From Escherichia coli (lineage in GTDB: Bacteria; Pseudomonadota; Gammaproteobacteria; Enterobacterales; Enterobacteriaceae): DNA of 64,000 nucleotides. Under the pieces are notes generated by a model. It ran no database searches. It had not been told where the DNA came from and worked only from the letters and a program-made list of their open reading frames with translations. The DNA is taken from assembly GCF_003790525.1 (NCBI RefSeq), contig NZ_CP033635.1. One strand, 5' to 3'. Shown piece after piece: positions 50,953 through 63,064 of the stretch. Each line of letters starts with the position of its first letter. Within the stretch, counting starts at the first letter, position 1. The translations under genes and the position numbers were made by a program.

Positions 50953-51705
50953 TCAGGCAACGTTACGCGTGTGACCAGCAAGCTGGGCCAGCGCATCGTT
51001 ATTTTCGATGGTGATGTATTTACCTTTGACTGCCAGCATACCGCTTTTCTGGAAGCGGCCCAGCAGACGGCTGATGGTTTCAACCGTCAGGCCCAGATAG
51101 TTACCGATATCACCACGAGTCATCGTCAGGCGGAATTCACGAGGGGAGAAGCCGCGTTGGGCAAAACGACGGGACAGGTTGTAGATGAATGCAGCCAGAC
51201 GTTCCTCGGCATTTTTCTTCGACAACAGCAGGATCATGTCCTGATCGCCTTTGATTTCACCGCTCATCAGACGCATCATCTGCTGACGCAGATTCGGCAT
51301 TTTACCGGACAAATCGTCCAGCGTTTCGAACGGGATTTCACATACCATCGAGGTTTCCAGCGCCTGAGCGAAGCTCGGGTGATGACCGCTGCCGATAGCG
51401 TCAAATCCCACCAGGTCGCCTGCTAAATGGAAACCAGTGATTTGCTCGTCGCCTTGCTCAGTGATGGTATAACTTTTAATCGTACCGGAGCGGATGGCAT
51501 AAAGCGATTTAAGTTCATCACCAGCCTTAAACAGCGTCTGGCCTTTCTGAATAGGCTTCTTCCGCTCAATGATATTATCAAGCTGATCAAGCTCATGTTC
51601 GTTGAGTGTGAACGGGATGCAAAGCTGGCTGATGCTGCAATCCTGGCAATGGATAGCACAACCGCCAGACTGAATGCGCCGTATAATTCGCTTTTCCGGG
51701 ATCAT
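50953..51705 (-). CDS. fnr: Fumarate/nitrate reduction regulator FNR
   Basis: Start set at [10 protein letters not shown] (250 aa); N-terminal Cys cluster for [4Fe-4S], CRP-family HTH. Confidence 0.95.
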
Positions 51706-51724: not shown

Positions 51725-51738
51725 TTGATATTTGTCAA
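51725..51738. promoter_or_regulatory. FNR box at fnr promoter (autoregulation)
   Basis: TTGAT-ATTT-GTCAA matches TTGAT-N4-ATCAA, 20-33 bp upstream of fnr ATG. Confidence 0.6.
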
Positions 51739-56919: not shown

Positions 56920-57828
56920 ATGGCTTTTCAGGTAAAAATTCATCAAATTCGGGCTTTTGTTGAAGTGGCTCGTCAGGGCAGCATTCGCGGAGCGAGCCGA
57001 ATGTTGAATATGTCGCAACCGGCACTGAGTAAATCTATTCAGGAACTGGAAGAAGGGTTGGCGGCACAACTCTTTTTTCGCCGTAGTAAAGGCGTGACGT
57101 TAACTGATGCCGGTGAAAGTTTTTATCAGCACGCCAGTCTTATTCTTGAAGAGCTGCGCGCAGCGCAAGAGGATATTCGCCAACGACAAGGGCAACTGGC
57201 AGGGCAAATTAATATCGGCATGGGGGCCAGTATTTCCCGCAGTCTGATGCCAGCTGTCATATCTCGTTTTCATCAGCAGCATCCGCAGGTAAAAGTACGC
57301 ATTATGGAAGGGCAACTGGTGTCGATGATTAATGAATTGCGCCAGGGAGAACTGGATTTCACCATCAATACCTATTATCAGGGACCCTACGACCACGAAT
57401 TTACTTTTGAGAAATTACTGGAAAAGCAATTCGCGATCTTTTGCCGCCCGGGACATCCCGCCATTGGTGCCCGTTCGATCAAACAGTTACTGGACTACAG
57501 CTGGACAATGCCGACGCCACACGGCAGCTACTACAAACAGTTGAGTGAATTGCTTGACGATCAGGCGCAAACGCCACAGGTCGGCGTAGTCTGCGAGACG
57601 TTCTCAGCCTGTATCAGTCTGGTGGCAAAAAGCGATTTTCTCAGCATACTACCTGAAGAAATGGGCTGCGATCCCTTGCACGGACAGGGGCTGGTGATGT
57701 TGCCGGTTAGCGAAATTTTACCGAAAGCGACCTATTATTTGATTCAGCGGCGTGATAGTCGCCAGACACCACTGACCGCGTCATTAATCACGCAATTTCG
57801 GCGAGAATGCGGCTATCTGCAAAGTTAA
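56920..57828 (+). CDS. abgR: LysR-family regulator AbgR
   Basis: 302-aa ORF, divergent from abgABT; LysR HTH. Confidence 0.9.
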   Translation: MAFQVKIHQIRAFVEVARQGSIRGASRMLNMSQPALSKSIQELEEGLAAQLFFRRSKGVTLTDAGESFYQHASLILEELRAAQEDIRQRQGQLAGQINIGMGASISRSLMPAVISRFHQQHPQVKVRIMEGQLVSMINELRQGELDFTINTYYQGPYDHEFTFEKLLEKQFAIFCRPGHPAIGARSIKQLLDYSWTMPTPHGSYYKQLSELLDDQAQTPQVGVVCETFSACISLVAKSDFLSILPEEMGCDPLHGQGLVMLPVSEILPKATYYLIQRRDSRQTPLTASLITQFRRECGYLQS

Positions 57829-57836
57829 AACTGCAT

Positions 57837-57931
57837 AAAAAAAATAGAGTCTGTCGACATCCGCCAGACTCTACAGTACACACAGCAGTGCATCCGCGTC
57901 TTAAATCCGGCATGGTCTCCTCTGCGCCGGT
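57837..57931 (-). ncRNA. mcaS: Small RNA McaS (IsrA)
   Basis: Minus-strand sequence matches McaS as I recall it (5' ACCGGCGCAGAGGAGAC...); terminal hairpin AGAGTCTGGCGGATGTCGACAGACTCT plus U8; sits between abgR and smrA. Confidence 0.8.
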
Positions 57932-58158: not shown

Positions 58159-58722
58159 ATGAACCTTGACGACAAATCGCTGTTTCTTGACGCCATGGAA
58201 GATGTCCAGCCGCTGAAACGTGCTACAGATGTCCACTGGCATCCAACGCGTAACCAACGTGCGCCGCAGCGTATCGACACGCTGCAACTTGATAATTTCC
58301 TCACCACTGGATTTCTCGACATCATCCCGCTAACTCAGCCGCTGGAGTTTCGGCGGGAAGGGTTGCAACATGGGGTGCTGGATAAGCTGCGCAGTGGTAA
58401 ATACCCGCAACAGGCGAGCCTGAATCTTTTGCGCCAGCCGGTGGAAGAGTGCCGCAAAATGGTGTTCAGTTTCATTCAACAAGCCCTGGCGGATGGTTTG
58501 CGTAATGTGCTGATTATTCATGGTAAAGGGCGGGAAGATAAATCGCATGCCAATATTGTCCGCAGCTATGTGGCGCGCTGGTTGACCGAATTTGATGATG
58601 TCCAGGCATATTGTACCGCGCTACCGCATCATGGCGGCAGCGGGGCGTGTTACGTCGCACTACGTAAAACGGCACAGGCAAAGCAAGAAAACTGGGAGCG
58701 CCACGCTAAGCGCAGTCGTTGA
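58159..58722 (+). CDS. smrA: Smr-domain DNA endonuclease SmrA (YdaL)
   Basis: 187-aa ORF with C-terminal Smr domain. Confidence 0.85.
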   Translation: MNLDDKSLFLDAMEDVQPLKRATDVHWHPTRNQRAPQRIDTLQLDNFLTTGFLDIIPLTQPLEFRREGLQHGVLDKLRSGKYPQQASLNLLRQPVEECRKMVFSFIQQALADGLRNVLIIHGKGREDKSHANIVRSYVARWLTEFDDVQAYCTALPHHGGSGACYVALRKTAQAKQENWERHAKRSR

Positions 58723-59975: not shown

Positions 59976-60208
59976 TGAGATCCCGTTATTTTTATCAATT
60001 TTTGTTGCTATCCGATCGCAAAAAAGCCACGTCATATGATCAGATAATTCTGATAATGATAGACGCTATTTAACACTTCACACGGTTTGTATACGGAAAA
60101 GCATTTTGCTTTTTGTATTCAATTTAGACAGAATTTTATTAATCATTTCAGGGTAATGGGGTGATGAGATGTTGCGTAACAGGGCCAGAAGGCTAGACTA
60201 CAAAATAA

Positions 60209-61213
<1,005 letters not shown>

Positions 61214-61258
61214 CAAAAGCAATTTTCCCGGCTGTCTGTATACAAAAACGCCGCAAAG

Positions 61259-61272
61259 TTTGAGCGAAGTCA
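61259..61272 (+). promoter_or_regulatory. FNR box of fnrS promoter
   Basis: TTGAG-CGAA-GTCAA, centred about 41 bp upstream of the fnrS 5' end (class II position). Confidence 0.75.
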
Positions 61273-61309
61273 ATAAACTCTCTACCCATTCAGGGCAATA
61301 TCTCCCTTG

Positions 61310-61419
61310 CAGGTGAATGCAACGTCAAGCGATGGGCGTTGCGCTCCATATTGTCTTACTTCCTTTTTTGAATTACTGCATAGCACAATTGATTCGTACG
61401 ACGCCGACTTTGATGAGTC
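61310..61419 (+). ncRNA. fnrS: Small RNA FnrS
   Basis: Matches FnrS as I recall it (GCAGGUGAAUGCAACGUCAAGCGAUGGGCG...); terminal hairpin GCCGACTTTGATGAGTCGGC plus U8; between zntB and dbpA. Confidence 0.85.
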
Positions 61420-61487
61420 GGCTTTTTTTTGCCTGTTATATATCAGCGTCTACCCTTTAAGAGTCCACCCAATGACCGGAGGGAAAT

Positions 61488-61661
61488 ATGACGACACTCA
61501 TTTATTTGCAAATTCCTGTCCCTGAACCGATTCCTGGCGATCCTGTTCCTGTGCCCGATCCGATCCCTCGCCCGCAACCCATGCCTGACCCACCCCCCGA
61601 TGAAGAACCGATTAAATTGTCGCATCGTGAGCGTAGATCTGCGAGGATACGTGCCTGCTGA
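61488..61661 (+). CDS. Candidate 57-aa proline-rich small protein upstream of dbpA
   Basis: ATG 4 nt after GGAGGG; MTTLIYLQIPVPEPIPGDPVPVPDPIPRPQPMPDPPPDEEPIKLSHRERRSARIRAC; stops 30 nt before dbpA. Below the ORF-track size cut-off. Confidence 0.4.
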   Translation: MTTLIYLQIPVPEPIPGDPVPVPDPIPRPQPMPDPPPDEEPIKLSHRERRSARIRAC

Positions 61662-61690
61662 CTTTGCGTCGATGACCACGAGAATAGATT

Positions 61691-63064
61691 GTGACCGCTT
61701 TTTCTACCCTGAATGTTTTGCCTCCCGCCCAACTCACGAACCTTAATGAGTTGGGTTATTTAACCATGACGCCGGTGCAGGCCGCCGCGCTTCCGGCGAT
61801 CCTTGCCGGAAAAGATGTTCGCGTGCAGGCGAAAACCGGCAGTGGCAAAACGGCGGCTTTTGGCCTCGGCTTGTTACAGCAAATTGATGCGTCGCTATTT
61901 CAAACCCAGGCTTTAGTGCTGTGTCCTACGCGTGAACTGGCGGATCAGGTGGCAGGTGAATTGCGTCGGCTGGCGCGTTTTCTGCCAAATACCAAAATTT
62001 TGACGTTGTGCGGTGGTCAACCGTTCGGTATGCAGCGTGATTCGTTGCAACATGCGCCGCATATTATCGTGGCAACGCCGGGTCGTTTGCTGGATCACTT
62101 GCAAAAAGGCACGGTATCACTGGATGCGCTGAATACTTTGGTGATGGATGAGGCCGACCGCATGCTGGATATGGGATTTAGCGACGCCATTGATGATGTC
62201 ATCCGTTTTGCGCCAGCATCTCGACAGACGCTTCTGTTTTCGGCAACCTGGCCGGAAGCCATCGCCGCAATCAGCGGACGAGTGCAACGCGATCCTTTAG
62301 CGATTGAAATTGACTCAACAGATGCTCTGCCTCCCATTGAACAACAATTTTATGAGACATTCAGCAAAGGCAAAATTCCGTTGTTGCAACGGTTATTAAG
62401 TTTGCATCAGCCATCCTCTTGCGTGGTGTTTTGCAATACCAAAAAAGATTGCCAGGCTGTCTGTGACGCGCTGAATGAAGTAGGGCAAAGTGCATTGTCG
62501 TTACACGGCGATCTGGAGCAACGCGATCGCGATCAGACTCTGGTACGTTTTGCTAACGGTAGCGCCCGTGTACTGGTCGCGACTGATGTTGCTGCGCGTG
62601 GTCTGGATATTAAATCGCTTGAGCTGGTAGTGAACTTTGAACTGGCGTGGGACCCTGAAGTTCATGTACATCGCATCGGTCGTACAGCGCGTGCAGGAAA
62701 TAGCGGTCTGGCGATCAGTTTCTGTGCCCCGGAAGAAGCACAGCGGGCCAATATCATTTCTGACATGTTGCAGATAAAACTTAACTGGCAAACGCCGCCA
62801 GCTAATAGTTCCATTGTGCCGCTGGAAGCCGAAATGGCAACGTTATGTATCGATGGCGGGAAAAAAGCCAAAATGCGCCCGGGTGATGTATTAGGTGCGC
62901 TGACAGGAGATATCGGGCTTGATGGCGCAGATATTGGCAAAATCGCCGTGCATCCGGCGCATGTCTATGTCGCGGTGCGTCAGGCTGTTGCTCATAAAGC
63001 ATGGAAACAGTTACAGGGCGGGAAGATTAAAGGAAAAACGTGCCGGGTGCGGTTATTAAAATAA
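61691..63064 (+). CDS. dbpA: ATP-dependent RNA helicase DbpA (DEAD-box)
   Basis: 457-aa ORF from GTG; Walker A (TGSGKT), DEAD (MDEAD), SAT, HRIGRTAR motifs. Confidence 0.93.
   Translation: MTAFSTLNVLPPAQLTNLNELGYLTMTPVQAAALPAILAGKDVRVQAKTGSGKTAAFGLGLLQQIDASLFQTQALVLCPTRELADQVAGELRRLARFLPNTKILTLCGGQPFGMQRDSLQHAPHIIVATPGRLLDHLQKGTVSLDALNTLVMDEADRMLDMGFSDAIDDVIRFAPASRQTLLFSATWPEAIAAISGRVQRDPLAIEIDSTDALPPIEQQFYETFSKGKIPLLQRLLSLHQPSSCVVFCNTKKDCQAVCDALNEVGQSALSLHGDLEQRDRDQTLVRFANGSARVLVATDVAARGLDIKSLELVVNFELAWDPEVHVHRIGRTARAGNSGLAISFCAPEEAQRANIISDMLQIKLNWQTPPANSSIVPLEAEMATLCIDGGKKAKMRPGDVLGALTGDIGLDGADIGKIAVHPAHVYVAVRQAVAHKAWKQLQGGKIKGKTCRVRLLK

Follow-up and report, generated by a model that had tools for sequence, protein, structure and literature searches.

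The FnrS RNA of Escherichia coli K-12, the closest described counterpart of the locus considered here, was reportedly described by Durand & Storz (2010) and by Boysen et al. (2010). Transcription of fnrS is dependent on FNR, enhanced by ArcA and reduced by CRP, and induction of the RNA leads to repression of more than 30 mRNAs for anaerobically dispensable functions (review PMC8139620). FnrS is Hfq-dependent, and Hfq improves its pairing with the 5' UTR of iscR; it is an anaerobic repressor of iscR, and deletion of fnrS raises expression of an iscR-lacZ fusion 13-fold under anaerobic conditions (PMC11572966).

With respect to its promoter, fnrS resembles other class II FNR promoters, of which ydhY has its site centred at −42.5, while those of narK, nirB and caiF are centred at −41.5 (PMC3688515). 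Like these promoters, that of fnrS has one FNR site, which overlaps the −35 region and is centred around −42. However, fnrS yields a non-coding RNA instead of the mRNA of an operon, and the centre of its site, −42.5, is not the commoner −41.5.

FnrS also bears some likeness to the small RNAs that arise from 5' UTRs by premature termination (Adams et al. 2021, PMC7815308), since its terminator lies directly upstream of a co-oriented open reading frame (ORF). It differs from them in having a dedicated promoter, and the downstream gene, ynaL, seems to have its own as well. The accessible part of the supplementary text of that study (PMC7815308) holds no match to FnrS, ynaL or dbpA. As for ynaL itself, the SPA-tagged protein was detected in K-12 cultures grown in LB, in both exponential and stationary phases, and the authors suggested that ynaL may share an operon, and a related function, with the adjacent dbpA gene (PMC6001520).

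In this study, we analysed 64,000 nucleotides of E. coli DNA (contig NZ_CP033635.1 of assembly GCF_003790525.1), the whole of which is referred to as the window. An original prediction, made from the letters alone, had placed an FnrS small RNA (sRNA) with a class II FNR box at positions 61259-61419. The FnrS element is already known (RF01796; b4699 in K-12). What is new here, as we infer from comparing fnrS loci, is the pairing of fnrS with ynaL and a promoter-like element that overlaps the fnrS terminator.

The fnrS gene in the window

A search of the whole window with the Rfam models at gathering threshold yielded two matches. The frnS model (RF01796, gathering score 60 bits) matched the plus strand at 61309-61426 over its full length (model positions 1-119 of 119) with a score of 134.8 bits (E = 4.4e-24). 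Alignment with the annotated fnrS gene of K-12 (b4699, 1409129-1409250, 122 nt) gave 122 identities out of 122 positions for 61309-61430. The covariance-model scan and the alignment, both of which had been proposed as checks along with the prediction, were thus positive, and together with the conserved register of the FNR-type box (see below), they confirm the sRNA and its box at the predicted place. The interval itself needs an adjustment: its start, one nucleotide before the box, is right, but its end falls 11 nt short, inside the 3' arm of the terminator stem. Since the RNA ends at the T-run at 61423-61430, the corrected end is 61430 rather than 61419.

The transcriptional start site (TSS) of fnrS is the G at 61309. 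This numbering was independently checked with published FnrS point mutants, named G4C/G5U, C47A/U48A/U49G (fnrS-II) and U57A/U58G/U59A (fnrS-I) (PMC8595263); the bases at G4/G5, C47-U49 and U57-U59 all agree with the window when +1 is set to 61309.

The region 61150-61750 is 100% identical to that of strain SMS-3-5 (NC_010498.1). Among 5426 complete E. coli genomes, 5392 contain it once. The promoter plus sRNA segment is likewise single-copy in 5392 of the 5426, and it is at least 99% identical in 5074 of them. Six of the 5392 segment matches are on plasmid-labelled records, which could represent wrongly assigned replicons or large pieces of the chromosome. In the curated MG1655 annotation, fnrS sits between zntB and ynaL/dbpA, and the gene order zntB-fnrS-ynaL-dbpA is common to the window and K-12. 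The 122-nt RNA, the FNR box, the −10 element, the terminator and the flanking zntB and ynaL-dbpA genes all have identical counterparts in K-12. The differences are a substitution at −4 in the promoter (61305, C versus T) and another in the zntB-fnrS spacer (61227), with none in the RNA, and the gene is unannotated in the SMS-3-5 RefSeq record. An fnrS feature is present only in the curated K-12 record; as the sampled PGAP records and the RefSeq record of SMS-3-5 are without it, the fnrS call is a useful annotation fix.

No evidence contradicting the identification of FnrS was met among the checks run, and it is practically certain that 61260-61430 is the E. coli fnrS locus, in which an FNR-activated class II promoter drives a 122-nt, Hfq-dependent sRNA with a strong intrinsic terminator. 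The features of the locus and its surroundings are collected in Table 1.

The window also carries an McaS/IsrA sRNA on the minus strand (57836-57931; RF00115, threshold 42, score 112.3 bits), located between the ORFs at 56920-57828 and 58159-58722.

Table 1. Positions in the window of fnrS, its parts and the genes around it.
Feature	Coordinates	Strand	Basis
fnr, activator of fnrS, 250-aa form starting MIPEKR	50953-51705	−	NCBIfam Fnr NF008365, 529.9 bits, cut-off 228
zntB, upstream of fnrS	60230-61213	+	NCBIfam ZntB, 645.4 bits
FNR box TTGAGcgaaGTCAA (TTGAGCGAAGTCAA), centre −42.5 from fnrS TSS	61260-61273	+	Pattern match, register, K-12 ChIP-seq
fnrS −10 element CAATAT	61296-61301	+	Sequence; conserved columns across 117 loci
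FnrS sRNA, 122 nt	61309-61430	+	Rfam RF01796 and K-12 b4699 identity
5' hairpin, FnrS positions 10-35	61318-61343	+	MFE and centroid fold, Rfam consensus, alifold
Single-stranded C/U-rich stretch CUUACUUCCUUUUU, FnrS positions 47-60, main target-pairing region	61355-61368	+	Predicted fold, Rfam consensus
Intrinsic terminator, 8-bp stem GCCGACUU/GAGUCGGC, loop UGAU, U8 at 61423-61430	61403-61430	+	Terminator scan
Putative ynaL promoter, −35 TTGCCT (61429-61434), 16-nt spacer, extended −10 TCTACCCTTTA (61449-61459)	61429-61459	+	Conservation, sigma-S match
ynaL Shine-Dalgarno GGAGGG	61478-61483	+	Sequence; GGAG-type in nearly all 70 loci
ynaL (b4743), 57-aa proline-rich small protein	61488-61661	+	SMS-3-5/K-12 annotation, Pfam PF23677
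dbpA, GTG start, 29 nt past ynaL stop	61691-63064	+	NCBIfam DbpA, 768.5 bits

Structure of the FnrS RNA

A degenerate pattern of the FnrS 5' hairpin was searched against 100,044 reference genomes, resulting in 120 loci, of which the 117 starting with GCAGGTGAA were true fnrS. These 117 loci and 96 unique FnrS sequences were used for the comparisons below.

The fold of FnrS consists of the 5' hairpin, the C/U-rich stretch, a middle hairpin and the terminator. Positions 47-60 are unpaired in both the predicted fold and the Rfam consensus, and they cover the sites altered in the fnrS-I (U57-59) and fnrS-II (C47-U49) mutants. All of the target-pairing bases are intact in the window: G4/G5 at 61312-61313, C47-U49 at 61355-61357 and U57-U59 at 61365-61367. 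The terminator stem-loop (61403-61422) is GC-rich and has a free energy of −13.8 kcal/mol (z = −4.84). FnrS therefore ends in a rho-independent terminator with an extended U tail, which serves as the Hfq-binding module in sRNAs of this class, and through it FnrS of the source strain would be expected to bind Hfq.

Abundant compensatory change is confined to the terminator stem, where base pairs alternate across genera (GC/AU in 43/41 and CG/UA in 65/28 of the 96 unique sequences). The 5' hairpin is recovered in the alifold consensus with a few compensatory changes. The first 47 nt are nearly invariant across these sequences, in part since the search pattern itself fixed positions 19-42, which explains why the covariation signal is weak in the 5' half.

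As a separate matter, pairing of FnrS with the translation initiation regions of its neighbours, ynaL, dbpA, zntB and ynaN, was considered and rejected, the duplex energies being no better than those with shuffled targets (z from −0.85 to +0.96).

The fnrS promoter

The half-sites of FNR are TTGA and TCAA, and those of CRP are TGTGA and TCACA; the half-sites of the fnrS box are of the FNR type rather than the CRP type. The box is identical in sequence to that of K-12 and has two mismatches to the consensus TTGATnnnnATCAA. The window contains 44 matches to this consensus with no more than two mismatches versus 34.5 expected, so that a single match is not above chance. A consensus search of the window alone was accordingly dropped as evidence for the box and replaced by conservation of its register. 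Throughout the Enterobacterales, 111 of the 117 independent fnrS loci have, at exactly −49 to −36, a 14-mer that departs from the FNR consensus at two positions or fewer. Most families carry it as TTGAG-N4-[AG]TCAA, and Erwinia and Pantoea as CTGAT-N4-[AG]TCAA. Column conservation in the 117 loci is mostly 70-90% in the half-sites and the −10 element, with the −10 columns spanning 60-90%, versus 30-50% between the box and the −10. For K-12, FNR ChIP-seq gave a peak and a site at −42.5 for fnrS, which is among the directly FNR-activated promoters (PMC3688515). The box is thus significant because of its position, its conservation and the published ChIP-seq data, and not because of the pattern match alone.

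The −35 position is occupied by ATAAAC (61273-61278), which agrees with TTGACA at two of six bases, meaning that there is no usable −35 element, and a simple sigma-70 scan of 61000-61900 called no complete promoter. This is what one would expect of an activator-dependent class II promoter, and the same scan also misses the degenerate −10 upstream of ynaL. The class II assignment made in the original prediction is therefore upheld, being supported by the geometry of the promoter (centre at −42.5, no usable −35) and by the ChIP-seq table for K-12, in which the fnrS site stands at −42.5. It is exceedingly improbable that TTGAGcgaaGTCAA is a chance sequence or a site for another regulator, such as CRP, and that the promoter of the source strain is not class II FNR-dependent. 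The two mismatches, the chance frequency of equal matches in the window and the negative action of CRP on fnrS would be compatible with such a view; however, the box is identical to the one in K-12 that is occupied by FNR and scored at −42.5, the register is kept in 111 of 117 loci, and the half-sites are not those of CRP.

The NarL/NarP heptamer consensus is TACYYMT. A heptamer that fits it, TACCCAT, is found between the FNR box and the −10 element (61283-61289) and could be due to chance; TACC[CT]AT is kept in several Enterobacteriaceae and not in Enterobacter and others.

The gene for the activator, fnr, had been expected about 10 kb away, and it is indeed encoded on the minus strand at 50953-51705, 9.6 kb from the box. 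Upstream of its start codon (51705, minus strand), by 20-33 nt, is TTGATATTTGTCAA (51725-51738), with one mismatch to the FNR consensus; this is presumably the site, already known, through which FNR regulates its own promoter.

Genes flanking fnrS

In nearly all of the 117 loci, zntB adjoins fnrS, usually directly upstream and on the same strand, and in Enterobacteriaceae its stop codon is fixed approximately 96-99 nt upstream of the fnrS TSS. A scan of 61000-61900 found no intrinsic terminator after the zntB stop (61213) and ahead of the fnrS promoter. Therefore, zntB transcripts probably continue through fnrS and stop at its terminator. Thirteen nucleotides upstream of zntB is ynaN, a 15-codon ORF on the plus strand (60169-60216). 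The SMS-3-5 record names this gene "ydaN", the old name of zntB, although it gives the product as "protein YnaN".

On the other side, the proline-rich ORF that had been noted close behind the sRNA starts with an ATG at 61488, 57 nt past the 3' end of FnrS, and is ynaL. Its product matches Pfam PF23677 with 136.9 bits (threshold 27) over residues 1-57 of 57 and is identical to K-12 YnaL as printed in PMC6001520. Citrobacter, Salmonella, Enterobacter, Klebsiella, Kosakonia and others have homologs that go by the name "proline-rich small protein YnaL". The gene that follows, dbpA, codes for a helicase of 50S assembly, and the terminator scan (61000-61900) found no terminator-like site between ynaL and dbpA.

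Linkage of fnrS and ynaL across Enterobacterales

A YnaL-like ORF with a GGAG-type Shine-Dalgarno sequence (SD) is present at 70 of the 117 fnrS loci. In 68 of these 70, its ATG falls within +167 to +189 relative to the fnrS TSS, or about 50-65 nt past the terminator; the other two carry insertions and have the ATG at +224 and +287. This fixed spacing is seen in both Enterobacteriaceae and Erwiniaceae (Pantoea, Erwinia, Mixta, Winslowiella), and it holds in many genomes where the locus lacks dbpA or where dbpA is kilobases distant. The fnrS loci of Yersinia, Serratia, Rahnella, Dickeya, Edwardsiella, Hafnia, Photorhabdus and Arsenophonus have no YnaL-like ORF.

The association with dbpA varies with the C-terminus of YnaL. 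When this has the form ...PDPPPDEEPIKLSHRERRSARIRAC (...SHRERRSARIRAC), dbpA follows at a fixed 23-30 nt (27-30 nt with a single exception). When it has the form ...DPDPHPIIDPPPH[MR] (...IIDPPPH[MR]), dbpA is not adjacent, and a simple scan found an intrinsic terminator about 2-26 nt past the stop codon in approximately 12 of 29 such loci. Since the spacing between fnrS and ynaL is fixed even where dbpA is missing, ynaL is tied to fnrS more deeply than to dbpA. The pairing of fnrS and ynaL thus appears to be ancient, which, to judge from the compared loci, would be a new result.

Several loci deviate from this arrangement. In Kluyvera (L038, L082 and L107), the proline-rich part of ynaL, at about +165 to +210 from the fnrS TSS, is deleted, but L038 and L082 keep a remnant ORF of 14 codons (MSHRPARSARIRAC) just ahead of dbpA, which suggests that expression of dbpA may be influenced by the 3' end of ynaL or by its DNA. 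In E. coli E69 (L096, CP089930.1), an in-frame deletion of 11 codons in the repetitive PxP region leaves a ynaL of 46 aa. Pectobacterium (L018 and L053) has a proline-rich ORF (MLIQGATDYLQADTVPVEPIPIVPNDPSPYPLPDPPP...) with the SD GAGGAGG far downstream, at +424 and +653 from the fnrS TSS, and this ORF is possibly a displaced relative of ynaL.

A putative ynaL promoter in the fnrS-ynaL spacer

The original prediction had regarded the transcriptional relationship between the sRNA and the proline-rich ORF as worth examining. It proved to be so, as the comparative data suggest that ynaL may have a promoter of its own. In the alignment of the loci, the spacer between the terminator and the ATG is variable except for the T-run plus GCC, the SD and one block. 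This block has the form TCTACCCTTAA in Enterobacteriaceae and CCTATGCTTAA in Erwiniaceae, with its C-T-A and C-T columns conserved in at least 90%. It can be read as the extended −10 of a promoter, the −35 of which (TTGCCT) overlaps the last two T residues of the fnrS terminator. The putative −10 hexamer, TACCCT (61451-61456), agrees with TATAAT at three of six bases. In Erwiniaceae, the −35-like sequence is TTGCCA or TTGGCT, and the −35/−10 spacing is 16-18 nt in both families. The predicted TSS, around 61462-61464, would give a leader of about 25 nt bearing the SD GGAGGG.

The extended −10 consensus of sigma-S promoters is KCTAYRCTTAA (Weber et al. 2005, as quoted in PMC5650638). The block in the window matches it at 9 of 11 positions, and a match of at least 9/11 is present in 62 of the 70 ynaL loci (10-11/11 in 26 of 70). 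By comparison, the background is 5e-4 per window position, and 9/11 is reached in 5 of the 45 loci that lack ynaL. When the block is defined more strictly, it occurs in 48 of the 70 ynaL loci and in none of the other 45. The conservation of the element could partly reflect shared descent. Given these matches, together with the C at −13 and the TAA downstream, the putative ynaL promoter is probably of the sigma-S type, although it keeps a −35-like TTGCCT/TTGCCA and sigma-70 could use it too. The supplementary tables of the SMRT-Cappable-seq data contain no match to dbpA, fnrS, zntB or the coordinates. On balance, we lean towards the interpretation that ynaL is transcribed, along with dbpA, from its own conserved promoter, which would abut and overlap the tail of the fnrS terminator.

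Alternatively, ynaL (with dbpA) could be expressed mainly by read-through of the FnrS terminator, with FnrS being the prematurely terminated leader of an FNR-activated fnrS-ynaL-dbpA transcript; YnaL and DbpA would then be induced anaerobically. Several observations fit this idea: ynaL starts only 57 nt past the terminator on the same strand, the SD-supported ATG keeps its distance from fnrS in 68 of 70 loci, including genomes without an adjacent dbpA, and no canonical sigma-70 promoter was called in 61000-61900. However, the terminator is strong (a GC-rich 8-bp stem followed by U8, z = −4.84), and the conserved −35/−10 island in the spacer offers an independent start. Moreover, YnaL-SPA was seen in ordinary LB cultures (PMC6001520), in which fnrS, being induced by oxygen limitation, is expected to be poorly expressed. 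We therefore consider expression mainly by read-through to be unlikely. With a promoter of its own for ynaL, it is possible that read-through from fnrS makes at most a minor, FNR-dependent contribution.

The conserved block in the window, TCTACCCTTTAA, might also act not as DNA but as an RNA element of a longer transcript, for example as an anti-Shine-Dalgarno sequence masking the ynaL ribosome binding site. ACCCUUU can pair with AGGGA of the SD in the minimum free energy (MFE) fold of 61431-61500, and the SD is paired in the MFE folds of 57 of 66 spacer sequences. Against this, the fold in the window is no more stable than those of shuffled sequences (z = −0.28), and RNAalifold gives no consensus structure for 68 aligned spacers. 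The invariant columns, C-T-A and C-T, correspond to positions −13/−12/−11 and −8/−7 of a −10 element rather than to the C-run that pairs with the SD, and Enterobacteriaceae and Erwiniaceae would need different columns for pairing. A role of the block in RNA is hence very unlikely, and a conserved RNA structure between the terminator and ynaL was rejected as unsupported.

A broader scenario, in which fnrS-ynaL is an ancestral module of Enterobacteriaceae and Erwiniaceae that predates the adjacency of ynaL and dbpA, would have the terminator T-tract double as the −35 of a sigma-S-type ynaL promoter, and anaerobic transcription of fnrS modulate YnaL and, in E. coli, DbpA by read-through or promoter occlusion. 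Taken as a whole, we hold this scenario to be quite unlikely.

Discussion

In the mechanism envisaged for fnrS, [4Fe-4S]-FNR, encoded 9.6 kb away, would bind its box in the absence of oxygen and recruit RNA polymerase to fnrS. FnrS would then pair with mRNAs that are unneeded anaerobically, through its single-stranded C/U-rich stretch (about positions 47-60) and its 5' end (G4/G5), and repress their translation and stability. As the window nowhere departs from the K-12 element, the same mechanism can be inferred for the source strain, in which FnrS would be expressed anaerobically in an FNR-dependent manner and would repress its targets in an Hfq-dependent manner. Within the FNR regulon, FnrS serves as the post-transcriptional arm, and an intact copy means that the strain would have the standard anaerobic switch.

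For the genes around fnrS, the following transcription map is proposed: PzntB would drive zntB; PfnrS, a class II FNR promoter, would drive FnrS ending at 61430; and PynaL would drive ynaL-dbpA. The comparative data thus provide a testable transcription map for dbpA and for a small protein of unknown function. Whereas earlier discussion of ynaL has treated it solely as a potential member of an operon with dbpA, the data presented here indicate that it may instead be an older neighbour of fnrS.
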